This document shows, one piece after another, positions 5,032-63,816 of a stretch of 64,000 nt of DNA. Both the position numbers and the translations under genes were made by a program. This DNA is from Okamejei kenojei (lineage: Eukaryota). Under the pieces are notes generated by a model. It did not search any database and was not told the DNA's origin. It was given only the letters and a program-made list of their open reading frames with translations. The first letter of the stretch is position 1, and each line of letters opens with the position of its first letter. The stretch is taken from assembly GCA_035221665.1 (NCBI GenBank), contig CM069149.1, positions 9,796,001 through 9,860,000 of the forward strand, given 5' to 3'.

Positions 5032-5081
<50 letters not shown>

Positions 5082-19320: not shown

Positions 19321-19339
19321 GCTGCAAATATTATGAGCA

Positions 19340-19652
19340 ATAATACACCCAAAATGGCAAGTTGGTCACAAGAAAAGTCAGATATTGGTACATCTTCCAT
19401 AGCAAGTAATAAGAATTTTATCAGTTGAGAATAATCGGCATGGAGCGTTTGGAACAACAACTATTAGTACAATCATAACACGACAGGAGAAGCTAACACA
19501 TGCGCAGCCATCTATAGGTAGGAAGGAACTGCAGATGCTGGTTCACACTGAAGATAGACACAAAATTGCTGGAGTAACTCAGCGGGACAGGCAGCATATC
19601 TGGAGAGAAGGAATGGGTGACTTTTCGGGTCGAGACCCTTCTTCAGACTGAC
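19340..19652 (-). mobile_element. Penelope-derived element carrying ~170 bp of transduced flank, 11-bp TSD
   Basis: TSD tattatgagca at 19329-19339 / 19653-19663 encloses a copy of ~26470-26673 plus the element. Confidence 0.85.
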
Positions 19653-21087
19653 TATTATGAGCAGCATTTCTGACAGGCAATGTTGTTGTTCCAATCGACT
19701 TCTCAATCCTGTCCAGTTATTCTCATTTACGTTTGCACGTGCAGTCTATTATTGCACCAAAACATATCCAGAAACAGAGTTTATCCCAGGTTGTCCAGTT
19801 ATCTGTCTAATTTGCCTAAGATTCTGAATTCACATTCAGAATTCTAAAAACATTTTGATTTTAGTATAGTTGAATGGAGACCTGAAATATCCAACGTGCT
19901 CCATGTGTGGTCTCATCAAGATTCCCATTTTCATTTACAAATTCATCCATGGTTTCATCTCTCTCCACCTCTGTGATTTACACCAGCTCTATAACCTTTT
20001 CAGATGCGCTGTCCTTTAAATCTGACCTTGCGTGTTCTCAATTGTAATCAATCTTCCAGTTGCTAAGAACTTTGGCCCTGGAATTCCCTCTTAAACCACT
20101 TTCACCTCTCCTCCTTTATAAATCCAAGAGATATTTTCAAAGGCTGCCTGAAAGGAGCTTCACATAAGTGATTATCAAATAAAATTTGACAAAGATCCAT
20201 ATGTGGAAGTATTAGGGCAAATGACCTTTGGTCAGAGGAAAATCTTAAAGTGTCTCAAAGACGTAGAAAGGCGAGACAGAGGACTGAGGGCCACAAGTGA
20301 CTAAAGAAAGAAATTCCAGAGAAGTGGTTTAAAAAGGATTAAAATAGATAAGAGATTAGGCTCTGAGAACAGCATACCTCAAATTGAATACTTGAAGACT
20401 GAGATTGTAAAAAAAAAGGGAGATACGAGGTCATGAATGGATTTGTAAACAGGGATGAGATTTTTTACATTGAGAAACTTAGGTACACTACACTTTGATG
20501 AACAACTTTGCTCTCTGATTTATGTAAAGAATACAGAGACACTGGGGAAAGAGCAAAATAGATTTACAATAATGGTAGCACAACCTGGGGAAGTTTTACT
20601 TGCTGAGAACAAAACTCTTTCCTCTAATACATAAGTCCAAGAGGGATTGGACAGATGTTTTTCGACATTATGGAAGAATTTGATAGCTTATATTCCTAGA
20701 GAGGGTCACCACCCAGTAAGACCACCTTATGGACTCCCGACCGTCCTTCTTACCTTGTCACTGTCATGTTCTGAAGTGTTCTGACTCTAGAATTTTGGTC
20801 TGAATGGTGGAGAACCTCCTCCCAATGCACACTGTAGAAGCCCTTCCCCAATGTATTCCTGAATGCTTTGCTATCTGACAAAACCCAACCCTAGGTTTGC
20901 CCGCTGTTGAAGCAAGGAAGGAACTTTAATCATTTTTAAAATAGAGATTTCTCCGATATCGAGACAAAGCTATTAAATATGAAGGAAATAATTACAGCAT
21001 GAGAAAGTAGTTTTCGGAAAGAGGTAATTTAGATCATAGAAATTTGGAACAAATTCCAACTGATCAGAGGTTACAAACAAAAAAGGA

Positions 21088-21193
21088 CCCCTCTCTCGTT
21101 TCCCTTATCCCAAACCAGTCTGAAGAAGGGCCTCGACCCAAAATGTCACCCATTCCTTCTCTCCCCAGATGCTGCCTGCCCCGCTGAGTAACT
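21088..21193 (+). mobile_element. Penelope-derived short element
   Basis: cagtctgaagaagggcctcgacccaaaatgtcacccattcc...gatgctgcctgccccgctgag. Confidence 0.8.
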
Positions 21194-23479
21194 TTGGAAA
21201 ATTCGTGCGTGGATATCCTAGATTTGCTTCCACTTCAATGGTCAACAAATACGAACAAACTCAAAGTGGAATTCAGGAGATGTTTCTTTTCTCAATGAAT
21301 GGTTAAAACATGGAACACGAGGAGTGGCTGAGATGAACAGTTTAAATACATTTAAAGCAAAGCAAAATAAACACACCAAAGTGTAAGAATGAGAAGGATA
21401 TGTGGATCATTTTGGGTGGAGTGGTATGGGAGAGGGCTTAAGCAGAGCTAAAACCAGCATAAACCCCCTGGGGTTAAGAACGTGGTTTGCAATGAAATAC
21501 AATGTACACAATATGCATTTCTTTTTAAACACATATAAAAGACAACACACAGCATCATGCTTTGTATTGTCATACAATTCTAACAACAAAAATGTCCATT
21601 TACATACAACCTCAGCCATGAAAGACAAATCCCCACGGTCTTCTGCATTACCAAATAGAAATTGACACCATGCTGAATAAAGAGGTATATGGGGAGATGG
21701 GCAGAAAAGTAGATTAAGGAGCATGTACAAGTGAGTAAGAAAATATAATGACTATCAACCCAAAACATTCCCTCTTCATAGCAGCTGTCAGCTTTGCTGA
21801 ATATTTTCTGGATTTCCCATTCTTATTTCAAAGGAAATAAGAGGGAGGACACTCTAGATACAAGTAAGCAGCAGCTGAAAGTAGGGTCACCAATAATGAA
21901 GCAGTCAAATTTGGAGATGACCAAGGGATAAATTCAGAAGCACATAGGTTGCTTGCAGGACTTTTACAGAATGGAAAATTAAAATAAGTCTATTAACGTA
22001 AATAAAAATAAGGGTGTGAATTTTAGTTTTTTTAAATCAACCTGTTATTTACTTGGAAGGAAACATAGCTTGGTAAGCCTGTAAGTGATGAATGAATGGA
22101 TTTTGATCACTGATAGGACACGGGCAGCAGAAGCTTGACAGGTCTTAAATTCAATGGAACAACCTGGGACATGACCGCTGGGGGAGTTCATTTATTGAAT
22201 GGGGGCAAGGAATTCCAGTGATGGGTTAATTGGTTCACGATCTTTGAACAACAGAATGGGGCATGCCCAAGTGGCCAGAATTGGAAAAGCACAGCCTCTT
22301 CCCAGAAGCAATGTCACCAGTTTCTGCCTGCAGATATATTTCTGCACAGGATGTAGAAGCCCTCAATTAGGGATTAAACCTCCACTCCCAAGCCAATATC
22401 ATCCCCACTACAACAGTGGAGCCAAAAACTTGGAAAATGTTTAGCAGTTACAGTCCCTTCTCCACATTCCACAAGCAGAATTTTTTTTTTTGTTCTTATC
22501 AGTTCAAACAAGAACAATTAATTCCTTAGCCCTGCAAGAATGTGACAAGGTGCCAACAAAGCCAACAGGCAAGGTGATATATGGTCTATTTACCACGGTC
22601 AAATAAATAGCTTCATAAAACAGCACTGGAAGTAAATCCAGCAAATAGAAAACCTTTTTTTTAAACTCCCTGATAAAGACTTCCTCATTCCAGTCTCCAA
22701 TGAAGCAGCACTTAAAATTGTTTTAAGGTAATTGCAAGGACTGCTGCATCCTCTCCAAGTCTGAACAAAGTGGCAAGATCAAGTCTGGTTTGTCTTGGCA
22801 ATTAAAGCTAGATTTCATCTTGTGACAACCCCCCACCCTATGGGCCACACAGACTTCCCAATAATTACTCTTAGATTTTGAAGAGGTCAGAATCGTCTTC
22901 AGCAGCAGAACATTTACGAAAGTGACTGTTTACAACATTACTGCTTAAATAATCATTTTGCAAAATTCTAACAAACTACTAAACCATCAGGTGGCACTTT
23001 TAGATTACACCAACAGATTTCTTCTGGCACTACAAACGTGCGATTGAAGACACAGGGGTGTAATATTAACTTACAACAGTGACATAAAATTGATAGGGTG
23101 AAATTAGCTGGCCATTATATAAACAAACGCAGGAAACCTGAAATAAAAACAGAAAATGCAGAATGTGCTACTAAGCAGGACTGACAACAGTTGTGGTAAA
23201 AAAAAAGTTTCAGGTCAATGACATTTCCCTCAAACTGGGAGAAAAAGTTCTTTAATATTTTCCGGTTCTGACAGAAGAACAAAGTAAAATTCTATTGCTA
23301 GTTCTCTTTTCAGTCACTGCCTGACCTGCTGAGCACTCCTGTTGGCCTCCTACAATGCATCAGAATCAATCTTCTAGAATACTAAATTCAAAAGTTCAAG
23401 AATTTCTTCATGCAGAGTTCTGAAACTCTAGAATTCACTTCCCAGGTAAATACACAGGCAAAGTATTCACTATAGTAGT

Positions 23480-23720
23480 AGAAGGGGCCCAGGACAGAAA
23501 GGTTGGTATGGAGTGGGAAGGAGAGTTTAAATGGTTAACAACGGGAGATTCAGCGGGCAGAGCACAAATGTAGCAAAAACAGTAGCCTAGCCTATGCTTG
23601 GCCTCGCCAATGTAAAGGAGGTCACATTGGGATCACCAGATGCAGTAGATGAGGTTAGAGGAGGCGACGAAGGAGGTATAGCACCCGTTAGATCTCCTGC
23701 AGTCTTGGTGGGCAAGGATG
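23480..23720 (-). mobile_element. Penelope-like GIY-YIG fragment, degenerate
   Basis: Minus strand SSNLIYCIW*SQCDLLYIGEAKHRLG; homologous to 62180-62340. Confidence 0.8.
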
Positions 23721-25913: not shown

Positions 25914-26673
25914 TAGATCACCTTGAATCAAACTGCTGTGACACAGTTACACAGCAATCACTTTGTAATGTCCTGTAATCACTCCAAAGCAGATTTATAA
26001 GCACCAACAAATCAGCATTTAGCTCAGCAATGAATCTGTGTCAGTGTTCAAAGTATGTCTTGGGGCACACTGAATAACTCGAGTGAGAGCAAAATCTTTC
26101 CTCTCTCTATTCATTGCTGTTTTAAACAAGTCTGTTGCATAGGATAGGAATGAGACAGCTCTCAAACAAATATTTATTCCAAAATTGATGCTCCCATTAA
26201 TGGTGTGGCCACTAATTGGTATGTGTGATGTACCACTCAACCGGAAACTATTTCATTACAACTACCTGCCCACTTCATACCAAAACACCTGGCAAAGAAT
26301 ATCATTCTACCCACACAAAAATTTGGCTTTTCAGCAACGTTCCTGGAAGTTTTGTGGCTTTAGCTACTCAAGACATTTCAGAAGTACCTGTTACTGCAAG
26401 TTGCTACTTGCAAATCATCACAGTAGCACAAAGGAACGCCCAATGACCTTTGCCTGGATATACCTACCACACACCCAAAATGGCAAGTTGGTCACAAGAA
26501 AAGTAATTCTCAATTAAAGTCAGATATGGTTACATCTTCCATAGCAATTAATAAGAATTTTCTCAGTTCAGAGTTTAACAGTTATTTTGTGAATAATCGG
26601 TGTGGAGTGTTTGGAACAATTATAATATAATCATAACACTACAGGAGAAGCTAACACATGTGCAGACAACTAT

Positions 26674-26876
26674 AGGTAGGAAGGAACTGCAGTTGCTGGT
26701 TTAAACTAAAGATAGACTAAATGCTGGAATAACTCAGCGGGACAGGCAGCATCTCTGGAGAGAAGGAAAGGGTCAAGACGTCTGAAGAAAGATCTCTACC
26801 CGAAACGTCACCCATTCCTTGACTCCAGAGATACTGCCTGTCCCGCTGAGTTACGTCAGCATTTTGTGTCTATCAT
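26674..26876. mobile_element. Penelope-derived fold-back element, 11-bp TSD (putative transduction source)
   Basis: TSD cagacaactat at 26663-26673 / 26877-26887. Confidence 0.85.
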
Positions 26877-27259
26877 CAGACAACTATCGGGTTATATTAG
26901 GGTTTCCCAGTAGTCTGGCAAATAAGGATTTCCATCAACTGTAAAGATATTCAAGGATAGGAGATGAGGAAAGATAATTCAGGATGACAGTATTATTTCT
27001 GGGAGCTGAATGAATTTTACTATTTCCCCTGTTGGCCATCGAGTCCATGGAACGAATCACAAACTGTAATCTCTGATATTTTATCCAATTGCCTATTCTT
27101 CATTTTGGAAGCTATGTGCATTGGTGCTTTATTCAATCACATGCCAGATATCCCCCCCGAGGCTTGTATACACCTCTGTACATAAAAGAGGATTACAGAC
27201 AGAAGTGGGACTTTTGGCCAATTTTCCCTTTGCCTAACTGAGTCGGACGTTAAAATTCC

Positions 27260-27480: not shown

Positions 27481-27754
27481 TTATTCAATTAGTCCAAGTT
27501 TGTTCCTAAAACAATAGCGATGCACTCAAACAATTATTGTCGGTAATCTATCTATTTATCACATTCTAAGCTGATAAATAGACATTTTGCTTTCCATTTA
27601 CTGAAATGCAAAACACAATTTCTTTCAAAAGATCTGTTCCCCGTTGGTCAAACCTGATGTGAATTTGAAAACTGGTCTCCTTAATTTGCAGCCGATAGGA
27701 GGAGATTCTCCATTTGTCATTTATATTTTGGAGTATGTTTTGACCACAAGAGGA

Positions 27755-27845
27755 TACAAAGTGCTGGAATAAATCAGCAGGTCAGGCAGCGTCTCCGGAG
27801 AACATGGACTTGTGACGTTTCGGGTCAGGACCTTTCTTTAGACCG
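27755..27845 (-). mobile_element. Penelope-derived short element
   Basis: tgctggaataaatcagcaggtcaggcagcgtctccggaga...gtgacgtttcgggtcaggacctttctttagac. Confidence 0.75.
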
Positions 27846-28753
27846 CAAGAGCTCACACAAGAATTTATGCAACCCCAAATGTTTCAGACTAAAAATGTTC
27901 TATCCATACATGTTAAAATGTTTTTACAGCCTTGTCCAATTTGTGTCATATTCTGTCCGAACCCGACATTTATAAGCAAGCAGTCACAGAGGGGGATTCT
28001 GCCCATTCCGATGTACATCTGGAATATTGCTTTTGATCAGCATTTTAATAGTCATATAGACAAATATGCTATCCATTGCAATGTCATATAACTAATGTTT
28101 ATGTACAAAATACATTTTTTTAAACCTTGACTAGATGGCAGCAATAAAAGACAATTGAAAAGATTGCCAGAAAAATGGAGGTCAGCTTTTATCCACTGTT
28201 CTGTAAAAATGCTGTGTTTCATTAATTAAAACAATGCAGATTTATCAGCCAGACTGGGAGCCATAATATCCCTTTACAAGTCCAAACACTACATGCTTTT
28301 TCCCATCACAGTTAATGTTCCCAAATAATGGAAATACAATTTCAGTACATTAGGCTTAACAGTATATTAGTAGCTGGGTAAATGAAGTGAACCATGACAC
28401 AACAATAATGGACAGTTCTCCAGTATTACAAGTAAGGACATTATACTCTGTCAACAAAACCTGACGTGGTCAAACCACAATGAACAGCCAAAGACAAAAA
28501 GTATTTTGAACTTAAAAGTTACCACAAAAGCTGGTGTCAAGGTGAATAAATGTGATTGCATTCATTCCATTACAAGGTTCTTCCTTTCTTCATTCCCCAT
28601 CATGCTGATATAGTTGAACTTCTTCCCCATCTACCTAATCATGCTTTAAGAATTACAATTACATGCTACTTTTTAAAAAAGCTGATTGAATGACAAATGC
28701 CCGATTAATACAATTTTCTAAAACAAAATGGAGTAATGCTCTGGTCAACAGTA

Positions 28754-29060
28754 AGGGCCTGTCTCACTATACAAGTTTACCCAAGAGCTCTCCCTGTTTA
28801 AAAAAAAAAATCAAAGTCGTGGCAGGTACGTAGAATGTACGTAGCGGGTACGTCGGAGCTAGTGACGTCTCTTAGCGGCTCGTAACTCTAACGGCAGGTA
28901 CTCGGGAAACGCGGTAACTCGTGAAGTTTTTTCAACATGTTGAAAAATGTCCACGAGAGCCCCGAGTACCTACGAGCGGCTATTACCGTAATTCTCCGAG
29001 TTCAAATCAGGGGAAACTCGGGAGAACTCTTGAATTACCTCGTACAGTGGGACAGGCCCT
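28754..29060. mobile_element. Harbinger-type MITE with hybrid arms
   Basis: AGGGCCTGTCTCACT...AGTGGGACAGGCCCT|taa. Interior resembles the 13024 copy. Confidence 0.85.
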
Positions 29061-29724
29061 TAATAGACAAGCTTCATTTAGTGAAGGAAACTAAATGGCT
29101 GGTACATTAATATTAAAGCAGATCCATCAAATTTTGTTAGCAGATGCTGATCAATTTGAGACGGCATAATTTAAATGTAAAATGAATGTAATAGTACCAT
29201 ATTGTGCATTATTGAAGGAATAAAAAGACCAAGTCTACAATGTTCAAAAGAACCAAAACTTGTTAGCACTAGCTACACAAGTCAGCATAAACAGAAATGG
29301 TCACATCACTGGATGTATGGTTATTTGCAGGAATATTTATTGGACTATTTTCACTTGTTAAATGACAAAGGGCAAACCAAACTGGACTCGGGTCTTGCAT
29401 TTGCAATATACAGATAAACTTGGAAAGACTAGAAAAGGTCAAAAAGTAGAAACTCAGAAAAATAACCTGCATTAATTTCTTCAAAAGCAAGTGACTGGCA
29501 AATTTGCATTTATTGACAATTTTTAGTTATCCTCAGTAGGTATTGATGGGTGTTTAAGAGGGAATTAATTTCCATAATGCGATGGTGAATAAGAAAGATA
29601 AAATGAACAAGGGTGACAGAATCGTACCAATGCAACTTGATCGAATCTCAAATAAACCTCCATAAAACATACACTTCAGCAAATGCCTTAATTCTTCAAT
29701 TTCATCCTGTAAGTATTAGATTAG

Positions 29725-30004: not shown

Positions 30005-30133
30005 ATTTAAGAATGAACTGCAGATGCTGGAAAATCGAAGGTAGACAAAAATGCTGGAGAAACTCAGTGGGTGAGGCAGCATCTATGGAGTGAAGGAAAT
30101 AGGCAACTTTTCGGGTCAAAACCCTTCTTCAGG
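30005..30133 (-). mobile_element. Penelope-derived short element, second subfamily
   Basis: gaaggtagacaaaaatgctggagaaactcagtgggtgaggcagcatctatggag...tttcgggtcaaaacccttcttcag. Confidence 0.8.
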
Positions 30134-30236: not shown

Positions 30237-30393
30237 TAGACAGAAAATGCTGGAGTAACTCAGTGAGACAGGTAGCACCTCTGACCCGAAACATCACCCA
30301 TTCCTTCTCTCCAGAGATGCTGTCTCTCCTGCTGTTACTCCAGCGTTTTGTGTCTATCTTTGGTTTAAATCATCAGCTGCAGTTCCTTCCTAC
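30237..30393. mobile_element. Penelope-derived fold-back element with imperfect ~16-bp TSD
   Basis: acaataccacctcaga (30221-30236) / acagtacaacctcaga (30394-30409). Confidence 0.78.
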
Positions 30394-34600: not shown

Positions 34601-35985
34601 TGTGAGAATTGATTCATAGAGCAGGTCAAGGGTGACAAAAGTTGCAACACATTCCATTTCTTTACTACCCCCAATAGCTCCATTAACAAGCTACCTCCAA
34701 AGCAACCAAGACCTGAACGCATCACATATATTCTGTCCTATCTATCCCTCCCCAAATTTCTCCGAAACCCAAAATACTTCTTCTCTTTCCAGCATTCCTA
34801 TCAGTCTGAAGAGTCCCAACCTGAAACGTCACCTTTCCATGTTCTCCAGAGACGCTGCCCGACCTGTGACACTGTTCAATGCAGCTCATACACATTATTC
34901 TCACAAACTCTCTCTAAAGCTCAGAATTGATATCCAACATTCCTGTGCTCCACCGTACCAACACAAAACCAAGTCTGCTTCAAGCCACACTCCCACATCT
35001 CCTAGCTTCCACGTGGTGCCATCTGTAAAACATATCAAGCGAATGATCCAAATACATTACACCATATGAACAGACACACCTCCTTCTTTTGTAGAACAAA
35101 CCAACTGTATAGCAGCTGTAAATAAATGGGAAAGCCAGCTGAATATTTGAGTTGGTGGCAGGTTTAGCTGAATAAAGTCAAGGCAGGGTGTCAGCTGAAA
35201 AGCTAAGTTCATAAAACATTATAACAATTAATTAGCAGCCTGACTCGGGTATTGGTACCATCTGCATACTTTTGATGAGTATTAGAAGTGCTCGTACTAA
35301 CAGCCTCAACTGTAGTGAACAGCCCAGTACATGGTTCTAATGCATGTGGATGAAATGAATGCTATTTTGAAACAAATTTGGCCCCATCGTGCTCAACAAC
35401 CAACTTGCACTGCTAATCAAGTTTTGCATCAAACAAACTCACAACAATTGCTGAAAACAGATACAGTCTCAATTAGATTAACATCGAAATTTCTTAAGAC
35501 TTCCACATGTGAATTCACTATTAAATTAATTTGAATAGCAAATGCCATTCTCCGTAAACATGAGAAAATGTGACTCATTTTGTAAGTTAATGCTCGAATA
35601 CATTGGTAACGAAAACCGATTTGTTATTTTATGCGCCACATCACAACGTTTTTGTTAAAGCAAGAACATACTTCCAAACACAGCATCTCAGCTTATCCTG
35701 TGTTGCCTCCACTTGACTTGTTTGCCAATGGTCAACTCCATGCCCACGTAGGGAAAGTGAAAGCATCCTGCAGATCGAGGTCAAGCCTTATGCATCAGAG
35801 AAAACAAGCTGATCAAAACTTAACCAAATGGATAGGACAAGTTTTTGAAAATGGACCAAACGCAGGCAGGCGAGAATAGTGTAGCTAGGACATGTTGGCA
35901 AGTTGGGCCGAAGGGCCTGTTTCCACATTGTATCACTCTGTGACTCTAAATACAGTTTAGATTAACTGAGCATACTGTGTTTCAA

Positions 35986-36198
35986 TCGAAGGTTGACACA
36001 AAATGCTGGAGTAACTCGGGGGGGACAGGCAGCATCTCTGGAGAGAAGCAATGGGTGATTTTTCAGTGTCTGAAGAAGGGTCTTGACTCGAAACATCACC
36101 CATTCCTTCTCTCCAGAGATGCTGTCTGTCCCCCCGAGTTACTCCAGCATTTGGTGTCTACCTTCGATTTAAACCAGCATCTGCAGTTCTTTCCTACA
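35986..36198. mobile_element. Penelope-derived fold-back element, 15-bp TSD
   Basis: catactgtgtttcaa (35971-35985) / catactgcgtttcaa (36199-36213); internal ctgaagaagggtcttgactcgaaacatc. Confidence 0.85.
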
Positions 36199-36697
36199 CA
36201 TACTGCGTTTCAAGTTGAGTTAAAACAATTTGAAAGCAGTTGAACTGCTAAATTATGTCAGCAACACTGCTGTGGGCCAGTATAATAAAAATAAATTATA
36301 GGTCTATATTAACAGTTCACAGGAGGGTTGGGGAAAGTTAAACCATCAGTGTGAATGGGGAGCTGGAAATGTAAGTTCAAAGATCAATCCTGAAACAGTG
36401 AAACGGCTGTTGTATTTTGCCCCATGACTGCAAACTAAGCAATTTGATTTCACTTCAATTATATTTCTTCAACAGAAGTGTTGAAATCACCTGTCCAGAC
36501 ACTAAATTCATTGGCACGCCCAATAAAATGTCCAACCAGTAGACAGGGTTTTGCCAATTGAAAATGTCCTGCTAAGGGTGCGGCTATCTCTGCATTAGTT
36601 TAGCCCATGCACCAACTTCAGAAAGAATTGCCTTTCATATCCTGTACAATATCAGTAAATAATGTTTACAAGAGCCCATTTACTTCAATAAGAAGGG

Positions 36698-38213
36698 TTT
36701 TGGTTTCACCATGTAGAAATTACAGCTGTGTTTATACATTGTTCCCCCCCCCCCCCCCCCCATTTCAGGGCACCATCATGGTTGGGACATGGCTTTACAG
36801 GTGTTTGTAATTTCTCGGGTGTGTTTAAATGCATCATATATGCAGGTACAAGAGAGCTCTCAGCACCTAGCCTTTCCTCCAATCTTTCCATCACCTTTGG
36901 ACGCTTTTATTGCTGTTTATCAACGAGGACCAAAGTTGTGCCAATGAAAGTCAAAGAAGCCATTATGAGACTGAGAAACAAGAATAAAACTGTTAGAGAC
37001 ATCAGCCAAACCTTAGGCTTGCCAAAATCAACTGTTTGGAACATCATTAAGAAGAAAGAGAGCACTGGTGAGCTTACTAATCGTAAAGGGACTGGCAGGC
37101 CAAGGAAGACCTCCACAGCTGATGACAGAAGAATTCTCTCTGTCATAAAGAAAAATCCCCAAACACCTGTCTGATAGATCAGAAACACGCTTCAGGAGTC
37201 CGGTGTGGATTTGTCAATGACCACTGTCTGCAGAAGACTTCATGAACGGAAATACAGAGGCTACACTGCAAGATGCAAACCACTGGTTAGCTGCAAAAAT
37301 AGATGGCCAGGTTACAGTTTGCCAAGAAGTACTTAAAAGAGTAATCACAGTTCTGGAAAAAAGGTCTTGTGGACAGATGAGACAAAGATTAACATACCAG
37401 AGTGATGGCAAGAGCAAAGGATAGAGACGAGAAGGAACTTCCCAAGATCGAAAGCATACCACCTCATCTGTGAAACACGGTGGTGGGGGTGTTATGGCCT
37501 GGGCATGTATGGCTGCTGAAGGAACTGGCTCACTTATCTTCATTGATGATACAACTGCTGATGGTAGTAGCATAATGAATTCTGATGTGTGTAGACACAT
37601 CCTATCTGCTCAAGTTCAAACAAATGCCTCAAAACTCAATGCCGGTGGTTCATTCTTTAGCAAGACAATGATCCCAAACATACTGCTAAAGCAACAAAGG
37701 AGTTTTTCAAAGTTAAAAAATGGTCCATTCTTGAGGGGTCAAGTGAATTGCCCGATCTGAACCCAATTGAGCATGCCTTTTATATGCTGAAGAACAAACT
37801 GAAGGGTACTAGCCTCCAAAACAAGCATAAGCGAAAGATGGCTGCAATACAGGCCTGGCAGAGCATTACCAGAGAAGACACCCAGCAACTGGTGATGTCC
37901 ATGAATTACAGACTTCAAGCAGTCATTGCATGCAAAGGATATGCAACAAAATACTAAACATGACTACTTTCATTTACATTACATTGCTGTATCCCAAACA
38001 TTATGGTGCCCTGAAATGGCAGGACTATGTTTCAACACTGCTATCATTTCTACATGGTGAAACCAAAATGCATAAAAATGGCCTTTATTAAAATCTGACA
38101 ATGTGCACTTTAACCACATGTGATTTTTTTTCTATTACAAATCTCAAATTGTGGAATACAGAGGCAAATAAATAAATGATGGGTCTTTGTCCCAAACAAT
38201 ATGGAGGGCACTG
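36698..38213 (+). mobile_element. Tc1/mariner (IR/DR type) with inactivated transposase; outer part of left TIR missing
   Basis: Transposase remnants ~36925-37957: paired-like HTH (VRDISQTLGLPKSTVWNII), GRPRK, VKHGGGGVMAWACM, PDLNPIEH. Start lost, with stops and frameshifts. Right TIR ~37990-38213 has two tcccaaaca.tatgg DRs and ends gggcactg. Confidence 0.93.
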
Positions 38214-40575: not shown

Positions 40576-40753
40576 ATGTTTAAGAAGGAACTGCAGATCG
40601 AAGGTAGACAAAAATGCTGGAGAAATTCAGCGGGTGAGGCAGCATCTATGGAGCGAAGGAAATAGGCAACGTTTCGACTCAAAATGTTGCCTATTTCCTT
40701 CGCTCCATAGATGCTGCCTCACCCGCTGAGTTTCTCCAGCATTTTTGTCTACC
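40576..40753. mobile_element. Penelope-derived near-perfect hairpin element (second subfamily), 14-bp TSD
   Basis: TSD ttcacttatgtaga at 40562-40575 / 40754-40767; ~70-bp inverted arms. Confidence 0.87.
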
Positions 40754-41157: not shown

Positions 41158-43215
41158 CTGATTGAAGACAACATGGAAATACGATTATGATGTGTGTGGA
41201 GGTTTAAAAAAAATTGTTATGGGTTTGCTGCAACAGACAAATTTTGCGATACACTTCTATGATTCTATGCAGTCACCTGAAAATATGCACACCGCTCAGG
41301 TCACCATATTATAAACAGGAAAGAGGGTCATTGAGTAGATACCAAAAAAAAGGCTTGCAATTGGCAGAATCAGAAGTGAGAAGTTATACCTATATCAAAA
41401 GACAATGCCTCAGTTGTTACCAAACAAGTGAAAAATGCTGAGAAATTAGCATAAATCTTTGGGAATTATGGAGAGGGCATACTTTGAAAAAATTCTTCCA
41501 CATGGGTCTGACAAAAACGGAGGCTTTAAATACAAGGAAGGAATCAACAGATCCAACAGGAAGTTCAGGGCTTCTTTATCTGAGAGATCAATTGAATTGT
41601 CTGAGGATCTTGCTAGCTCAGGTGAACAAAAAAAAAAATCAATGAATTTTAAGAAAAAGCCAGATAAACTCACAACAAATAATAGAATTTTGGTAGTGCC
41701 TGGAGGAGGTCTACATGAAGCAAAAGGATCAAAGGACCCATTCCAGTATTGCAAATTAGATTTAATTCTAAAGGTTTAAATGTGGATACAGGGTTCTCCT
41801 GAAATGCTGCCTGACCCAGAGTTAATCCAGCACCTTGTGTTTCTTTTCTAAAAGGTTTAAATACAAATTACACACAATGCAACCTTCAATATAGCGATGA
41901 TCATGTACGTTTGCGTTAGAATGAAGCTTTTCTTCAACAGCATTGTATCATTCAAGCTTTTCCGATTCCTGCTTTGAATTTTTTTTGGTGGATTTGCACC
42001 CATCATTAGTATACAACTTGATATTTTATACTGTTGGAATTGAAATTTTATTCAGTGGTGTTGTGAATCTCTGGGATTATCTACCCCAATTTCTTAAAAT
42101 ATTGAATTACTAAATTACATTCAAGTCTGTGACAGATTTTGTACTAAGGGAAATAAGAAGCAGAAAGCAATTGAAAATAAAGATTAGATTAGCCATCTTT
42201 AAGAGACAGATTAGGCTTCTGGGCTCAGCTCCATTTCTCCTCTTCTTTCCCACGTTCTTAAACATACTCTGTTGGAATTAAATAAGTTATAAGCTACTTC
42301 TTAGGAACAATTCATTAAATTTTAATAAAGTCCATTTCTATCACTGACTATCCCCCCAATTTATCTCCTCTAAAGATTTCTCCCTACTCAACCTGAATAA
42401 TTGTGAACCACAGATAGTATAACCAGGGTAAAGGTGGGATGCCATTTAATGATATGTTGAACTTTGTTTTGCTGCTTTCCACAATCCCAGTAACACTGAA
42501 ACAACAATGACTCCAGGGGCATTTAATGTCTGCTTCAATGTATCCCTGATAACTTCTAACTTTTTCCTAACCATACTTTTATCAACTTTTATGAAGGAAC
42601 TAAATTAACAAGATATCGGCATTATCTAATTATTGAGAGTAACAAAGCAAAGCAATGACTGTTTTCACTTTAATTTTAATCTTTGAAACTGGTAGGCTTC
42701 CAATAACAGTACATTCATAATAACTTGCATTCATAATAACTAGATCACCTTTTCTTTGAATCATCATTTTGCAACAAATATAATTTTAGTTTAAGCAAGG
42801 TCCTTGAAAGTAGTTGAAATAATAGGTAGTTGAGTCATGCATATCATCAAAATGGCAGGTTGAGTCTTCAGACTTTCAGATTTTGCTAATCTCCAATGAA
42901 CAGCCACACGGGCAAAACCAGTTTTTCCTCAATGTCTTTGAATTAGTGAAGGGAAAACAAGATCATTGTTCCTCTCTGTTCTGTTTTGTGTTCAGCAATT
43001 AATGTTGAAACTGCTCACGGGAAGATCTTGGTCAAGGAGAGCACAGAATTCGGATCTGATCCATCTCATAACAAAATGAAATCCCCAACACAAGGAGAGT
43101 CAGGTAACTGAACATAAAATAAATTATGCTGGCCTGGAGAAGGGTTGCAGGGAGATGATGTAAAAAAAAAAGAAATAGGTCCAACACTGAATACAACAAA
43201 GAGAGTGGAACTTAC

Positions 43216-43266
43216 CCATTTTCTAGGTCTACCCCTAGGTCGTTTCTCACCAGTGGGCTCAGCTTT
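43216..43266 (-). CDS. HMGA2: HMGA2 coding exon 3 (KAEPTGEKRPRGRPRKW, AT-hook 3)
   Basis: 51 nt between acceptor tgttag| and donor |gtaagt. Size and peptide match mammalian HMGA2 exon 3. Confidence 0.97.
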
Positions 43267-43664
43267 CTAACAAAATAATTGGAAAAACAATGTTATCTTC
43301 ACAAGCTTAAGTATTCTTTTGTACAGAACCCATTACAACTTAAGGTAAAAGTTCACATGCCTTTTCTAAGGGAAAGATATTACATCCCTTTACTAATAAA
43401 GAGATTGCTTTGCTAATCTATAAACTATGCAAGACTGTCTGCTGTTTACAACTGAACAATAATGATTCCTACAAATTATCTCCATTGATCAGTCAGACTT
43501 CTTTCAGTCTTTAATCGAAAACATTAACAACTAATTTCTTGGATAAACTGAATATAAATCTAGTTTTGAGCTATTTACTGATATTAACAACTATCTAATG
43601 GTGTATACAATCAGTCTATTATTTATTTCTATGACAATGGATCATTCACTCAAGGAGTTAGAGT

Positions 43665-43762
43665 TTGTAGAAGGGTCCCAATGCGAAACTTCGCCCACTT
43701 TTTTTCCTCCAGAGATGCTGCCTGACCCGCTGAGTTACTCCAGCACTTTGTGTCTATCTTTG
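43665..43762 (+). mobile_element. Penelope-derived short element in HMGA2 intron 2
   Basis: ccagagatgctgcctgacccgctgagttactccagcactttgtgtctatct. Confidence 0.75.
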
Positions 43763-45913: not shown

Positions 45914-46000
45914 CTTTTGAGCTGCTTTAGAGGGACCCTTGTTTTTGCTTCCTTTTGGTCTTCCCCTAGGTCGTTTAGGCGTAGGTGGTCCAGTGGGTTC
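45914..46000 (-). CDS. HMGA2: HMGA2 coding exon 2 ([31 protein letters not shown]-hook 2)
   Basis: 87 nt between acceptor ttatag| and donor |gtgaga. Size and peptide match mammalian HMGA2 exon 2. Confidence 0.97.
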
Positions 46001-47862
46001 CTATAATTTAATATGGAACAGTGGCCAGTTAAACAGAGACCCAAAGAAGGCTCCAATACATCAAATTATTTCAAAAAGTACACAAGCTCCATACAGAAAA
46101 TTGGTGCTTGGTAACAACAGCATTTCACTGGAATTTGGTTACCTGTTCCTTTTTAAATGTGGAAAAACCCAAATGAAACACCAAAACAGTAGGTTACATT
46201 TTTACTGGATATCCATGATTTCAGAAAGAATTGGGACTCATTACTAAATAATACACACCTTCTGAAATTATTTATCAACGACTTAATGACTTGAATTTCA
46301 TAAAGAGATTTCCAAATGACTTTATTGAGAAAATAGAGGTGAGGTGCCCATATTGTGTAACTGCACCGAACCAAAAAAGACTAAGTTGATGCATTACATT
46401 TGAGACAAAAATCAAAACGATTGCAGCTTATATTGAACATCACTTCAAAGGCAGCGATATAAACCCCAAGTTAAACTGTTTTTTTTAAATTAAAAAACGC
46501 AATGTCAACTCATCAAGCGCTGAGTGTTGGCCAAGCTGTAGATATCCAACAGGCGATCGCCATTCAAGTTGGTTCACCCAACCATTCAGTTAATGAATCC
46601 AATACAAATCCTTCAGTCTCGCCGGTTGAAGCGGTCAGACCCTCAACATCTACACCTCGACTCATTTTTTCACCCAGATTCATATAAAAGTCACAACATG
46701 GGGAAACGATGCCTGCAAACCTGTACCATCGGCAAGCAGCGTTTTCAACAACACGGGGGGTTTGATGAAAAGAGAACGTGTCAAGTCCAAGCGGAAGGGA
46801 AGTCTAAGCAGACATTTGACTGCTTCGTGATCCGGGCACAGACCAGATTATTAAATAAACCGATCCTTACAGGACGTCCTGCCTTAGAATACAACATGAC
46901 CAGAGCTGGAAATGAGAAGGAAAAACAAGATGGACACATTTAGCCAGTTGGTACTGGCATCGAAATATTAGCCCTCGACACAAAAGCAGGTATTTCGTTT
47001 GCATAGTGTGGGGTGTATCAGCAAATTGGAGAGAATGTGCCTTCATAAAGTCCCGCGCTCAAAACAGAGGTCTGGAAACAATGTATTTGCATGAAATAAG
47101 GTCCATTACTACGGTCCTGAAAGTGGCAGCAATGTGGAGGAAATGGTAACGATATACTTTCTCGCGCTCAAATGGTGTCACCGTCCCCAAGTAGCAGAAG
47201 ATCGAGGAAGACCTTTCACCAAACTTGAGGAAAGGAAACCTTTTGTGGCAGTCACGTAGAAAGGGCGAGAGAGAGCGAGCGAGCGAGAGGCAGGGAGCGC
47301 GACCGGGAGGGCGAGCGAGCGAGCGAGTGTCTGACTGTGTCCCACAAGACATCAAATTAGGCGGGATTTTCAGATCACTTTTTTTTTTAAATGGGTGATA
47401 CTTGAACAACAAAAACAAAGCTGCCGGCCTTTCCGGAATGTTACAGAAGACCGAGAAGTCGTGAATATGCAACAGGTAAACGCCGACAAACGTCCTCCGC
47501 TCACTTTATTGCCCACACTTCACCCCCTTTGCCATTATCCCTGATATCGGTGGCGGGCCGAGTTTAACGCCGCAATCACACAAAGGTCAGCGCTTCCTAA
47601 ACTGCCTTTGCACCAAAAAAAAAACTCTGGGGGGGAAAAAAAAAGCCACATATTCCCCCACGCAGGCTCCCGGGCAAACTTTCGAAACCTCTAAAACGCA
47701 ACCGAATCTAAAGAGCGAAATCAGGAAAGGGTGGCAACTTATAAACGCGCATACAACGAAAACCGCCTTTAAACTAATCCTCGGCTCTATTCCCACTCAC
47801 TCCGTGGGTCCTTTCAGTGGAAAAGAGAGAATAATAAATAAAAAAAACAGCGCTATACTGAC

Positions 47863-47967
47863 TTGCTGCTGTTTCTTGGGTCGTCCCCGACCTCTCTTCT
47901 GCGGTGGCTCTGCAGGTTGTTCCGGGGCAGACGTGGACTGGCTGGGTCCTTCACCTCGTGTGCTCAT
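47863..47967 (-). CDS. HMGA2: HMGA2 coding exon 1 (MSTRGEGPSQSTSAPEQPAEPPQKRGRGRPKKQQQ, AT-hook 1)
   Basis: ATG at 47967 in gccgcaATG context. 35 codons match the vertebrate HMGA2 N-terminus with AT-hook KRGRGRPKK. Ends at donor CAA|gtcagt, phase 0. Confidence 0.97.
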
Positions 47968-54800: not shown

Positions 54801-55297
54801 AATCTTTCATTTCAAAATTTTTGTTTCATAAACAATTGGAAGCCTTTGCAAGCAATACAGTCTATTCTTCCATTTTCTTCCCACAGTTATCGTCATGACT
54901 GTTTTTCCGCTAAAATATTTCTCCAAACTTGTTAATTTTAATGAAGATTTTTTGAACAATGATTTGTAAATCTGCAATAAAGTCAGAGCCACTGAACAAT
55001 CCAGAAGCAAATATAGTGCTTCAGTCTTAAAATAATTCCATTGTCGTAACTGCTAAATTTAATGGTACAATTGAAACGATTACAGGGCAACATCAAAATA
55101 CAGCAATAAGGAAGGTAAAAGTATGATTTGAAGATGCTACTCTTTAAAAATGTCCACAGTTCGGGGGCTGGTGTTAAATATGAGACGAGGAAAAGCAAAT
55201 CAATAAAAGCATTCTGCTTCTAGCTAAGTATTTTTAAACATCAGTAAATAATGACTGCGGGAAAGGCACCCATTTTTGGTTTCTTTTGCCTCCACTT

Positions 55298-55377
55298 CTG
55301 AAGAAGGGTTTCGACCCGAAACGTCACCCAGAGATGCTGCCTGTCCTGCTGAGTTACTCCAGTATTTTGTGTGTATA
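55298..55377 (+). mobile_element. Minimal Penelope-derived element with intact hammerhead core, 10-bp TSD
   Basis: CTGAAGA-A-GGGT-TTCG-ACCC-GAAAC-GTC at 55298-55325. TSD tccacttctg at 55291-55300 / 55378-55387. Confidence 0.85.
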
Positions 55378-56894
55378 TCCACTTCTGTGGAGTTATATTA
55401 AAATATCTGTTGAGCTATATTCCCTTAAATCTGAAGCATCACAGTGATGAGATAGAAAATTCTTTAAGAAAACTCTGTGCCTTCTATAATAGCAATTATC
55501 TGTTTCTTCAACTGTTAATTGCATACTAGCTGTGAAAAAGGTTTTTTTTGCAAGAGTAACATGCACTCAAATAACATAATAAAGCCTGATGTGTTTCTTT
55601 GGTTGTGCTGTACATGTAGGGAATGATACTCATTGCCTTCAACAATGAATGCTAATTGGTGACAATCTATTTAACAGATTGTGTTTGATATGACTGAGTC
55701 TATATCGCTGACATACCACACTTCACTGATAAGGCACAATCTATTAGACTGATACCCACATCTTATCTGTATACTGGTGCAAATTATGTACCTTCTGGAT
55801 CATCCTATTTCCTGTCTGTGATGGGAAGTGACAGCAAGCTAGAATGTCTTTTCGGTCAAACACAAATAAAGTTAAATGGATTAAGCAGAACACTGCCTCT
55901 GTTTTGAAACAGCAAAATTATACCAGTTGGGTGGATGAATTAAAGAAACAGTAGAAATAACTTTCAAACTATCACCATCTAATTATATTCTGAAATAAAT
56001 ATTTTTAGTTAATAGACTATTAATAAATGGTGTTAAAATTATATTTTCTGTCAATGAACAATCGAAAAGTGCAGAATTTATACTTGTGCACTGACTCCAT
56101 AGAGTTCGAGTGCACTTCTACTGCACAGTTCATGTCAGTGACAAGTAATTTTATGTTCACTCAACACAAAGATGTCAGATTCTAACTGCAAGTGATGTGA
56201 AATCCCTGCTGGGAGCTGGCTACAATATAACATAGGTTACACTTGTGTCATAAATAAAACAGTGTGAAACAGATAACATTTCTCTGTATATTTGGAAGTA
56301 TTGGGGTGGATATATAAGTTACCAGTTCTGAACATTGTTGTATCATTATGTTATAGTCAATTTTATTCCACATTTATGAAAACGCATTCCTCAATAATCC
56401 AGTGGAAAATACTAACGTTATAATTCGGCACTTTATATGATGTGGATGCTGCAATATGAGGCCAGTATTGCTCTGGATGGGATCGACTAACCCACTCCAA
56501 ATTTGGTGGTGCGGGTGGGGAGGGAATCACTCTGCACTTTTCATCACTTGGGACATCTGGTCTCCATGTCACCTCCTTCCCTCCACCTTCCCTCTACTTT
56601 GACATTCCTGATCTTTTCCATCTGCCTCCCCAAACCCAGAACCAAGACTCTGCTGTTTCTGCAGCGTATCCTCTCAACTAAATCAGCCACATCCCTGAAT
56701 GAAAGTTATGGACTGCAGTGTACCGAAGAACATGCCTTGAAATAATATATATATATGACGTGGTTTAATGGTAGCTTTAGATATTAAAAAGAAAAACTTT
56801 ATTCCATGTAACCTGTAACACCATCCAGTGAAGGAATATACCTCTTGCCATTTGCAAATTATTGCAGCTGCTAAATGTGAAAGTGTGAATAATA

Positions 56895-58231: not shown

Positions 58232-58547
58232 TTTAGTTTAGTTTAGAGATACAACATGGAAACAGGCCCTTCGGCCCACTGGGTCCGCGTCAACCAGCGA
58301 TCCCCGCACATTAACACTGTGCTCCACCCACTAGGGACAATTTTTACATTTGCCAAGCCAATAAACCTACAAACCTGTACGTCTTTGGAGTGTGGGAGGA
58401 AACCGAAGATCTCGGAGAAAACCCACGCAGGTCACGGGGAGAACGTTCAAACTGCATACAGACAGCGCCCGTAGTCGGGATCGAACCCGGATCTCCGGCG
58501 CTGCATTCGCTGTAAGGCAGCAACTCTACCGCTGCGCCACCGTGGCC
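58232..58547 (-). mobile_element. HE1-like tRNA-derived V-SINE, near full length
   Basis: tRNA-like head ggccacggtggcgcagcggtagag...gggttcgatcccg, V-domain, and CR1-type tail ending in (ctaaa)n. Confidence 0.88.
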
Positions 58548-59368
58548 GGTGATGATGATGAGTCAGAGTATAGGGTATAGGAGGGAGATCGATTGTCTTA
58601 TCCAATGGTGCCAGAGCAATATCCTTGCTCTCAATGTTAGTAAAACTAAGGAACTGATCGTTGATTTTAGAAGAGGAAGTCAGAGGATCCACAAACCCAT
58701 CTTCATCGATGGGTCAGTGGTGGAGAGAGTGACAAATTTAAAGTTACTGGGCGTGCATATCTCTGACGATCAGTCCAGAACCCAGCATATTGATGCATTC
58801 ATAAGGAAAGCCCATCAACGCTTCTACTGCCTTTGGAGATTGAATTGATGATATTTGGTATGTCAACGAGTACGTTCTTGAACTGCTACAGTGTACGGTA
58901 GAGACCATAGGGCCTGGAACAAATGCCCAGGAACAAAGCCTATTGCAAAAGGTGGTGAACACAGCTTGGTCAATCACAGGTACTGACCACTCCACCATCA
59001 AACTGACCTATAGGATGCACAGTCTCGAAAAGGCAGTCAGCATTCCTGGGGACCCCACACCACCCTGACCACACTCCAATTTCACTCATGCCATTGGGAA
59101 TAAGGTATGGGAGCCTGAAAAATTGGAACATCCAGGTTCAGGAGCAGCTTCTTCCCAACAACCATCAGGCTATTGAACAATAAGAACTCCTACTAAACTC
59201 CGAACTGTGAACAGCCTTCATTGCACTGGGGACTTGAGGGTTTTGTTTTTGTCTTTGCACTATATTGGTTGTTTGTTTTTATATATTGAACTTTTCATTG
59301 TTTGATATGGTGTGTATTGAGTACTATGTACTATCTATAGTGCTACTGTAAAGTAAGATTTTAATTGT

Positions 59369-59850: not shown

Positions 59851-60159
59851 AAGATTTTAATTGTTCCATTTCAAGACATATGACAATAAAACACTCTTAA
59901 TTCTCTTGACACTGGTACTCATTCAAAAACCCAGTTAATGGATTTGGAGGATTATGAGTCGAAATCCTTCTTCAGACTGGAGATATTGCTTGACCTAGTT
60001 TCTACGGGGAATAGATCTGAAGCAGATGTGTTGGTTCATGTCCTGTATATCTTGGTGTAGCAGATGCAAAATGATAGAGTGTTTTTGAGATCACGTTCTA
60101 TGAGGAGAATTGACTTTATAAATCTCATGCATTTTGGTCGTGGCGTTGGTTTGATTATT

Positions 60160-61711: not shown

Positions 61712-62346
61712 TGTGTAGGGGAAACTGCAGATGCTGATTCACACCGAAGATACAAAATGCTGGAGTAATTCAGCGGGTCAGGCAGCATCTCTGGACAAAA
61801 GTAAAACGGACCTTTCTTCAGACTGAGAGTCAGGGGAGTGGGAAACTGGAGAGGTACAAAAAACAAATGAATGTAAGGTATGCAATTGGACAAATCAAAG
61901 CCAGCAATGATGATCTAGGAAAGGTGGAGCCCACAATGGTTCATTGTTGGCTGTGGAGAAGGTGATAACGGGTGACGCTAACAAGTGAAACTGTGAAACT
62001 AAGTGGTACAACAGAGAAACTAGTAGGATGACTAGGGTGGGGAGGGACGGAGAGACAGGGAATGCAAGGGTTACTTGAGGTTAGAGAAATTAATCTTCAT
62101 ACTGGTGGGTTGTAAGCAGCCCAAGCAAAATATGAGATGCTGGTCCTCCAATCTGTGTTTGGCCTCACTCTGACAGTGGAGGAGGCCCAGGACAGAAAGG
62201 TCAGTAAGGGAATGGGAAGGGAAAGTGTTTGGGAACCGGGAGATCGCGTAGGCCAAGGTGAACTGAGCGAAGGTGTTCAGTGAAATGATCGTCCAGTCTA
62301 CACTTGATCTCGCTTATATATACATCCACATCTAGAACAGCGGATA
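61712..62346 (-). mobile_element. Penelope-like element 3' region: GIY-YIG C-terminus plus terminal (pLTR) sequence
   Basis: Minus strand translates IRCSRCGCIYISEIKCRLDDHFTEHLRSV...DLSVLGLLHCQSEAKHRLEDQHLIFCLGCLQP. It continues into the ctgaaga.../agatgctgcctgacccgctga repeat found dispersed across the window. Confidence 0.9.
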
Positions 62347-62356
62347 ACTTCAAACA

Positions 62357-62604
62357 CTATACCCCCTCCCTTGACTTTGTTCAGGGACCCCGACAGTCCT
62401 TTCAGGCAACGGTTTACTTGCACCCCCTACAACCTGATCTACTACAGTATATCCACTGTTGGTGTGGACTCCTCTTTATCGGCGAGACCAGGCGCAGACC
62501 GGGCGATCGTTTCGCTGAACACCTGCACTCAGTCCACCTTGGCCTACGCGATCTGCTGGTTGCCAAGCACTTTAACTCCCGTTCCTATTCCCATACCCAT
62601 ACCT
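62357..62604 (+). mobile_element. Penelope-like GIY-YIG fragment, inverted relative to its neighbour
   Basis: QGPRQSF...FTCTPYNLIY...CGLLFIGETRRRPGDRFAEHLHSV...VAKHFNS. Confidence 0.88.
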
Positions 62605-62788
62605 GCCGTTCTGCCCTGGGCAGCTCCTTTGTATGGGTGGGGAATGTTGCCTTTGATCAACAAGTGCTTTCTCAGATGTAATAGTAAGGCATTAATAAAT
62701 CTCCTATAGGGGCGGGGATGGGGGTGGGAGGGAGGAGGGGGGGATAATGGACACAGTCCCTGACATGGAGTTTATCTCAGCCAAGGAT

Positions 62789-62921
62789 GTCTGAAGAAGA
62801 GTCTCGACCCGAAACGTCACCCATTCCTTCTCTCCAGAGATGCTACCAGTCCCGCTGAGTTACTCCAGCTTTTTGTGTCTATCTTTATTTTAAACCAGCA
62901 TCTGCTGTCCCTTCTTACACA
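62789..62921 (+). mobile_element. Penelope-derived short element with hammerhead core
   Basis: gtCTGAAGA-A-GAGTCTCGACCC-GAAAC-GTCac at 62789-62820, then the family body. Confidence 0.85.
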
Positions 62922-63505
62922 TGTTAATTCAACGTGTAGGCACATTATTCTGCCTGTGCCATTGTGTCAGGTGAAGTAAAGAAGAAAAACATAGAGCTCA
63001 GATCCAAGTGGGGTTCAGATTGGCTGCGTTTTACATTTTCTACCCAAGCAAAGCTCCAGCTGACAGGACAGAATAAAACAAGAAGTAATAGAAGAAGGGA
63101 AATTAAGGGAGTGAATTAGAGGAGCAGAAAATAGAGTGAAACAGGGAAACAACAGAAACTTTATTCTTAAAGTTGCCGTGCGAAATGGCACACATGATAG
63201 TGACCCCATTATTTGCAACTGCAACTGTGGTAAAACAATCAGGCTTCACTGTCACAGCCTTCCTCTGTCGTGTGGCGTGCACAGCCTAAAGTTGTAGGAC
63301 AACTTGTCTATTTGGTCTTCTGTTTGTGCACGTCAAGTTGATTGCATCAGTCGAAACAGGGCGGACCACGTGAAGGTTGCAATCTCCCACCCCGTCACAA
63401 CCTTGGAGAGGAGAGAAACCTCTGCGTTTGTGCATGTGTCGTTTAACATGGAAATCCAGACGTGGCTGTCAGGGATAATCCCGCTCTTCCACAGTTGCGT
63501 TGTTA

Positions 63506-63816
63506 AGCACCTGTCCCACTTTCCCGAGTTACTCACGAATTCTCCCGCGTTTTCCCCTTGATTCAAACTCAGGAGAATGTCAGTGGCGAGTCCGTAGGAG
63601 TCCGTAGCGAGTCCGTAGATATTTCGTAGCGGCTAGTAATGCCAGCCATAGGTACTCGGGGCATCAGGTGAGTCGGGACGTTTTTTCAGCATGTTGAAAA
63701 ATGTCCACGAGTAAAACAAATAGCCACGAGTACCTACGGCTGGCATCTCCGAGTTCGAATCACGGGGAAAACTCGGGAGAATTCGTGAGCAACTCGGGAA
63801 AGTGGGACAAGGCCTT
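63506..63816. mobile_element. Harbinger-type palindromic MITE
   Basis: tta|AGCACCTGTCCCACTTTCCCGAGTT...AACTCGGGAAAGTGGGACAAGGCCTT. Left part homologous to the 1335 copy. Confidence 0.85.

Follow-up and report, generated by a model that had tools for sequence, protein, structure and literature searches.

Positions 55291–55387 of the window, by which we mean the whole 64-kb stretch of DNA that was analyzed, hold a 77-bp insert bracketed by an exact 10-bp direct repeat, TCCACTTCTG, with its left copy at 55291–55300 and its right copy at 55378–55387, both on the plus strand. The insert (55301–55377, plus strand) is a solo, tail-less terminal repeat that covers unit positions 7–95 with a 13-nt internal deletion. 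A minimal hammerhead motif spans 55298–55328 on the same strand, and the letters of this best copy, CTGAAGA-A-GGGT-TTCG-ACCC-GAAA-CGTC-ACC, are those given in the original prediction: CUGAAGA with an extra A, stem II (GGGU/ACCC) with a UUCG loop (a variant, CUCG being commoner in the family), GAAA, a palindromic ACGU, and a GUC triplet. A strict minimal-hammerhead descriptor matches the window only here and matches none of 200 shuffles; this sole descriptor-complete copy keeps both the core and stem II. The last four nucleotides of the left repeat (TCTG) double as the head of the element and supply C3-U4-G5. Because CUG thus falls within the TSD, with a target-derived base before it, stem I of this copy amounts to 1 bp and not to the ∼2 bp expected from the prediction. 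A second copy, at 62788–62921 (plus strand), is a solo repeat of the full 134 nt with a tail. Its motif at 62791–62818 had been put forward as a second intact core, which holds for the 13 core letters; stem II, however, forms three of four pairs owing to an A-C mismatch, and no TSD was found.

The window is vertebrate DNA of 34–49% GC, presumably from a cartilaginous fish, which has similar repeats. Three AT-hook-coding exons lie on the minus strand (∼47857–47967, 45914–46000, and 43216–43266; the Pfam AT_hook match reaches only E = 0.021) and belong to what we take to be an HMGA2-type gene. The 55291 and 62788 copies are upstream of this gene on the opposite strand, and the copies below 43.2 kb sit within its long third intron.

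A Family of Solo and Inverted Terminal Repeats

The short elements are solo and inverted terminal repeats (pLTRs) of a Penelope-like element (PLE), with a unit of ∼134 nt. A profile built from eight arms in the window returned 34 matches in the 64 kb at E < 0.1, 28 of them at E < 1e-3, and the best E with the same profile on the reversed window was only 2.2. The 28 arms group into 19 short loci and one GIY-YIG-bearing parent fragment, in agreement with the ∼20 short related elements first noticed; the loci at 4824 and 7712 are a single insertion doubled by local duplication. The size of 80–250 bp proposed earlier fits most loci, with one of 313 bp and another of 69 bp falling outside it. Motif counts in the window were 13 against 0.36 expected and 21 against 0.35 expected. 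Bacterial and archaeal genome contigs, searched twice with an exact motif, contained no stray copy either time. The family may already be in a catalogue (Dfam, Repbase), and every structural feature has published precedent; a literature search mostly outside the subscription journals found no publication on the family in cartilaginous fish.

The parent is a 5′-truncated PLE on the minus strand (61712–62346), comprising a broken GIY-YIG C-terminus, a pyrimidine-rich 3′ UTR, a pLTR, and a tail. The pLTR unit forms the 3′ terminus of this GIY-YIG element, as predicted, and its hammerhead is deleted after the 5′ side of stem II. Head-to-head with this fragment lies an inverted GIY-YIG arm (62347–62628, plus strand), the best homologues of which are 51–53% identical. 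The 130-aa frame of this arm matched no Pfam family, and a word-index protein search with it scored 0 of 110 candidates; a full HMMER library search gave 153 homologues at E ≤ 0.001. Ten of the 153 were scanned, with GIY-YIG in six, RT in four, and both in two, all below curated cut-offs; at longer lengths, three of the ten have RT or RT plus GIY-YIG, and one more has RT only. The homologues join an RT to a C-terminal GIY-YIG, the closest ones with a CX3-4CX2C linker, and the atlas neighbors are eukaryotic GIY-YIG clusters (0.94–0.95). That the pLTR ends a GIY-YIG fragment whose homologues are PLE-type RT/GIY-YIG proteins bears out the proposed Penelope origin. A cysteine linker (CX2-5CxxC, between RT and EN) is tied to the Neptune clade in the available text of PMC8557442. 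Judged from sequence, the element probably belongs to that clade, the linker being seen only in the homologues and the window fragment, without an RT, beginning just after it. A further GIY-YIG fragment, old and standing alone at 23477–23549 (minus strand), is related to the parent.

Seven loci are head-to-head dyads: 1913–2061 (12-bp TSD; tail on the plus arm only), 13314–13456 (short arm interrupted by a TIR element; no recognizable TSD), 18315–18485 (8-bp TSD, weak; tail on the minus arm only), 26674–26876 (11-bp TSD, 26663–26673 and 26877–26887), 30237–30393 (16-bp TSD, two mismatches), 35986–36198 (15-bp TSD, one mismatch; plus arm full length), and 40576–40753 (second subfamily; 14-bp TSD; arms differing at 1 of 61 columns). 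All six uninterrupted dyads pair one long arm with one short and carry the tail on one arm only, and in two of the seven the arms clearly share subfamily variants (three and six shared changes). Sub-threshold Rfam microRNA-precursor matches occur on the dyads at 40576–40753, 18315–18485, and 35986–36198 (best MIR1507, 48 bits versus a cut-off of 73); we dismissed the Rfam miRNA and plastid matches on the copies as merely dyad hairpins. The dyads could yield hairpin RNA from the host intron.

Solo pLTRs on the plus strand include the insertion present both at 4823–5240 (split by a TIR element; 11-bp TSD) and at 7711–7849 (tail, G12-to-A, TSD), a copy at 21090–21193 with a broken core and ∼30 nt of retained pyrimidine-rich upstream UTR, and a tail-less copy at 43663–43760 with a broken core and no TSD found. 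On the minus strand are two older solos, at 18513–18597 (broken core, no TSD found) and 27753–27836 (15-bp TSD with two mismatches, overlapping the head), and a solo of the second subfamily with a GUU triplet (30008–30132). An old, 3′-truncated head (34804–34866) and a headless 69-bp fragment with a 12-bp TSD (41782–41850), both on the plus strand, complete the set together with a composite locus described below.

Other repeats accompany the family. One, with terminal inverted repeats of ∼20–66 bp (1331–1638, 4920–5195, 13020–13312, 28752–29062, and 63503–63816), resembles a DNA-transposon MITE; its copies interrupt pLTR copies at two loci, so it is the younger family there, and one copy contains a run of 48 C (5033–5080). 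A local tandem duplication (∼4770–7490 versus ∼7660–10730, 92–96% identity) copied a pLTR insertion and has the MITE in one copy only. A Tc1/mariner-like transposase remnant occupies 36692–37760, its HTH matches below curated cut-offs except for HTH_24. LINE-type ORF-end fragments lie at 3230–3553, 11077–11604, and 58516–59180; Pfam ALKBH8_N, a usual match for such LINE tails, matches 11077–11601. A GC-rich inverted repeat at 758–1227 (arms of 68 and 37 nt) is unrelated to the pLTR family.

Ends of the Copies

The 3′ ends were counted on 26 arms, with the duplicate and weak fragments excluded. Twelve of the 26 end at unit positions 129–134 and 11 at 91–99, none ends at 100–128, and three are shorter (one cut by a TIR element); there are, in other words, two 3′ stops ∼35 nt apart. 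At the other end, 10 of the 12 arms that reach CUGA stop inside a 7-nt interval upstream of the uncleaved core (p = 3e-12 against the hazard from other arms, with starts read by hand and the interval picked post hoc), and two 5′ boundaries are blurred by TSD microhomology (positions 2–9 and 3–7). The cleavage site (within 2 nt) is the start of 1 of 25 arms, and the upstream 40 nt of the parent are resembled by 1 of 10 heads. A weak (E = 0.04), 3′-truncated head at 59952–59980 (minus strand), which starts just upstream of CUGA, was kept outside these statistics.

The 5′ boundary, which in the parent reads as an initiator-like TCAGT, coincides with a 3′-splice-site-like CAG and with the base of a competing hairpin. 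Excerpts of earlier reports describe an initiator-like TCACT in a rotifer pLTR (PMC3846280), a D. virilis start site inside the pLTR (PMC2377424; PMC8557442), and a D. virilis intron that ends at the same point relative to the hammerhead (PMC4209133). Given that intron end, a splice acceptor is a live alternative identity for the boundary sequence, although not a cause of the stop. A spliced template as the cause, at least in its simple form, was rejected: the heads have no common upstream exon, and several keep the AG.

TSDs of 8–16 bp flank 12 of the 19 short loci, 11 of them recovered by a fixed-window search of 23 intervals and one by a wider search. Among 300 random positions, a score of at least 11 was reached by none and a score of 10 by four; three of the TSDs fall within the upper 1–8% of this null, and the 8-bp case and two 2-mismatch cases are individually weak. 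The description of the family as TSD-flanked therefore stands for 12 loci and not for the remaining seven. When more distant TSDs were sought (800 bp, 10 solos), a new significant repeat appeared only at 19340–19652, the other scores (5–9) being inside a null of 60 (maximum 9). An 11-mer at 7713 was discounted, as it reflects the local duplication. We note that three TSDs end, in the element sense, in the head letters of the element itself (26663–26673, GTCTG; 27837–27851, GTCTAAA; 55291–55300, TCTG), a hint that joining is guided by microhomology or that certain targets are preferred.

An Apparently Re-mobilized Copy

The composite locus at 19340–19652 (minus strand) joins a tailed pLTR (19518–19652) to ∼178 bp of flank from the locus 26471–26675 and has an 11-bp TSD (19329–19339 and 19653–19663). 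It appears to be a short copy re-mobilized once, carrying the flank of another copy, with the dyad at 26674–26876 as the inferred source. The flank, which lies 3′ of the tailed pLTR in the element sense, is identical to the source flank at 153 of 169 positions with two short indels, and the matched part includes the TSD of the source dyad and the same non-standard last bases. This flank sequence occurs at only two places in the window. The perfect 11-bp repeat directly adjoins the 5′ end and, on the far side, is separated by 5 nt from the point where homology stops; the probability of this by chance is ∼2e-5, rising to 2e-3 when the full range of the search is allowed for. Plain DNA duplication is disfavored, as the direct repeat abuts both ends of the homology and one of these is the usual 5′ boundary.

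This structure is most simply explained by a read-through RNA, an intermediate that we infer, on which priming took place downstream of the tail. Low-level priming of this kind is described in part of PMC11167929, and capture of host DNA by pLTRs, in trans, in part of PMC3846280. The copy and its source are 7 kb apart and both sense to the host intron, so a nascent host pre-mRNA is a possible template. None of the substitutions by which the source arm departs from the majority sequence recurs in the transduced copy. Most of the head is missing from the source arm today, which requires either a deletion after the event or a template switch.

State of the Hammerhead

The majority sequence fits the published PLE minimal-hammerhead consensus, with an extra A after A9, G10.1-C11.1, a palindromic ACGU at 15.2–16.2, and a GUC triplet, which corroborates the minimal type I anatomy of the Penelope kind that was originally proposed. 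The 13 letters of the CUGANGA...GAAA core with its NUH triplet are intact in three of seven main-subfamily heads and in the majority sequence, and stem I is 2 bp in most heads, with 92% of cells paired, next to a helix I of 2–5 bp in the published PLE motif. An Rfam covariance scan found no hammerhead family on any copy and none in 55250–55420 at E ≤ 10; an HH9 match at 18238–18302 (E = 4.4) was discarded, as it lies away from the family copies. The hammerhead in itself is expected, for canonical PLE pLTRs carry minimal hammerheads, with dead single motifs by the thousand.

For a test of selection, we compared the core with the rest of the element in the seven main-subfamily arms with a full head. 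Core divergence was 5/91 versus 26/391 for the rest (p = 0.82). CpG sites were mutated equally in the core and stem (5/28) and elsewhere (5/28), and non-CpG core sites were mutated at 0/70 versus 23/377 elsewhere (p = 0.035; 4.0 expected). This last deficit is weak and may reflect conservation in the source or the choice of heads; four older heads show none (core 5/40 versus 36/219). Of these seven heads, four are substituted in the core, stem II is broken in two, and one shows neither defect. Compensatory change was seen at none of the four stem II pairs, counting two-sided changes across 13 heads (a small sample), and the covariation count for the whole structure was matched by 363 of 500 shuffles. 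Conservation of the core beyond the rest of the element and covariation of stem II, on which the original prediction had staked a working family, are thus largely absent across the copies.

Predicted folding points the same way. In four of six folded heads, a competing hairpin, in which the core pairs with the downstream pyrimidine run, lies 8–11 kcal/mol below the hammerhead-compatible fold. The 13-nt deletion of the 55298 copy removes this hairpin and brings the penalty to 4.2 kcal/mol; its predicted stem II pair probability is 0.07–0.08. The motif was kept in the source lineage and decays near-neutrally in the copies, as the copy-level divergence, covariation, and folding results together indicate.

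Discussion

We lean toward the view that the solo and inverted pLTRs are short products of the RT/GIY-YIG protein of a Neptune-type PLE. The TSDs, the tail, and the inverted dyads support the mobilization by PLE machinery that had been proposed. The endonuclease would cut the target with a stagger of 8–16 bp, observed as the TSDs, and reverse transcription would begin inside the RNA at unit position ∼95 or ∼132, by analogy with anole Poseidon, for which a portion of PMC11167929 reports two internal RT starts. The cDNA would then extend to the observed fixed boundary a few nucleotides upstream of CUGA, most likely the RNA 5′ end at the initiator-like TCAGT, giving run-off products of an uncleaved RNA that starts in the 5′ pLTR. 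Both target strands would be primed, one per start site, and the cDNAs would join head-to-head into one-tail dyads. The hammerhead would be inherited cargo, selected in the source, where it probably folds only with the help of another pLTR or of the PLE protein. As each copy holds the cis signals, it could be re-copied in trans, and the window records at least one such event, which took ∼178 bp of flank along, presumably through an RNA. The start of only 1 of 25 arms at the cleavage site is in line with the uncleaved RNA that, in the same portion of PMC11167929, is the substrate in vitro. Against this explanation stand the lack of a full-length element in the window, the putative nature of the TCAGT transcription start, the weak deficit of mutations at non-CpG core sites, the seven short loci at which no TSD was found, the indirect basis of the clade assignment, and the fact that recombination between direct pLTRs would yield the same solos and dyads.

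That last route, in which a full-length inverted pLTR plus pLTR-ORF-pLTR arrangement loses its interior between direct pLTRs, seems to us quite improbable. Three pLTRs, a single tail, and a 9-bp TSD make up the typical Penelope structure, and recombination or deletion has been proposed for rotifer solos, both according to excerpts of PMC3846280; the process would also preserve the TSDs and the restriction of the tail to one arm. To leave no full-length element and 19 short loci in the window, however, conversion by way of ∼100-bp repeats would have to be almost complete, and the rotifer solos to which this account was applied are without TSDs in those excerpts. By itself, the process would also leave unexplained the fixed end on the 5′ side, the headless 69-bp piece between TSDs, and the transduced copy. 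A self-propagating, SINE-like family of dispersed ∼134-nt non-autonomous PLE units, with short copies made from short copies through an internal promoter instead of from autonomous mRNA, is unlikely but less so. It would account for the fixed 5′ and 3′ ends and for the 19 short loci against one ORF-bearing locus and one old fragment; one copy among the 19 loci does derive from another short copy, and pLTR promoters (PMC2377424) and trans-mobilization (PMC3846280) are documented in parts of those papers. Yet the transduced copy lies only 7 kb from its source, where read-through host pre-mRNA is a possible template, it has none of the majority-departing substitutions of the source arm, and with one decayed parent no diagnostic mutation separating short from autonomous copies is demonstrable. 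Of the SINE-like claim, what stands is that one short copy served as a template; in this one window, the family is otherwise indistinguishable from the short products of an autonomous element.

We regard a non-LTR retrozyme, in which tandem transcripts self-cleave, monomers circularize, and the PLE RT re-inserts them, as very improbable. The type I hammerhead motif is present, monomers of such families are dispersed, and, in the available text of bioRxiv 10.64898/2026.07.22.740005, retrozymes derive from pLTRs and are present in one chondrichthyan genome. Tandem Repeats Finder, however, returned no tandem (head-to-tail) units in the 64 kb, all seven two-arm loci are inverted with motifs on opposite strands, no arm has a tail followed by a head, and stem I of at most 2 bp departs from the canonical helix sizes given in part of PMC7229834. 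With neither tandem units nor permutation at the cleavage site, and with ends upstream of an uncleaved core, the retrozyme label does not hold for this window. The supplement of the bioRxiv report contains chondrichthyan families that may bear on this one. Least credible of all is the idea that the 55298 copy, by itself or together with 62791, has been retained for ribozyme activity in an RNA that lies upstream of the HMGA2-type gene. Its descriptor-complete sequence and its freedom from the competing hairpin speak for such a role, and the two copies with an intact core share a strand at a distance of 7.5 kb; but its 1-bp stem I, low stem II pair probability, and want of an Rfam hammerhead match in 55250–55420 speak against it, one survivor in seven heads ∼3–10% diverged is the drift expectation, and the core is broken in all four heads that lie in the sense orientation of the host intron.

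A further reading, possible but doubtful, is that the pLTR makes up the whole mobile unit by itself, as a PLE parasite of ∼134 nt that is dispersed without tandem arrays, spreads from copy to copy, and can move downstream host DNA. Such a parasite would have its own TCAGT start, an uncleaved hammerhead, and two RT start sites, and, if the idea is true, each one-tail dyad would document, in vivo, how a dimeric PLE protein primes the two target strands from separate sites on the template. What gives the family its value is its junctions. The insertions retain an intact cleavage site and start 5′ of it, an in vivo pattern that parallels the in vitro finding of an uncleaved RNA template. With a density of ∼20 loci in 64 kb, such junctions may be very numerous genome-wide and could report on start-site pairing, the 5′ boundary, and flank transduction.

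Comparison with Known Systems

Available parts of PMC4209133 describe minimal hammerheads as thousands of dispersed single motifs from truncated PLEs, some in opposite-strand pairs, that are inactive as monomers and weak as dimers. These and the present family have in common CUGANGA plus an extra nucleotide, G10.1-C11.1, GAAA, a palindromic 15.2–16.2 without loop 3, an NUH triplet, and a pyrimidine-rich upstream region. Stem II has 4 bp here versus mostly 5–8 in the published examples, and the 2-bp stem I is like that of the D. virilis, Culex, and Oikopleura rows. Neither shark nor skate occurs as a term in two supplementary files of that paper other than file 1.

Animal retrozymes, going by portions of PMC7229834 and bioRxiv 10.64898/2026.07.22.740005, share with this family a type I hammerhead, a non-coding nature, pLTR ancestry, and PLE-dependent mobility. 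They are head-to-tail repeats, mostly of 150–450 bp, with circular RNA; unlike them, the family has no tandem units or cleavage-defined ends in the window.

Excerpts of PMC3846280 and PMC8557442 give the pLTRs of EN+ PLEs head-to-head inversion (an inverted copy with a Penelope tail of 30–40 bp on one end), solo pLTRs, TSDs of 8–10 bp, and captured host DNA, all with counterparts here, including the ∼30–40-bp one-end tail. In contrast to the pLTRs in those excerpts, the present unit is smaller, at ∼97 or 134 nt, most copies are short forms, the 5′ ends fall at a sharply fixed boundary, and the captured sequence follows one pLTR on its 3′ side instead of sitting between two. The Poseidon element PAc of Anolis carolinensis belongs to the Penelope/Poseidon clade, whereas the homologues of our fragment have the Neptune-type cysteine linker. 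According to parts of PMC11167929, the PAc hammerhead is unneeded for insertion and inactive without protein, and the likeness to the present family would extend to two internal RT starts that define the tail and to extension of both target strands.
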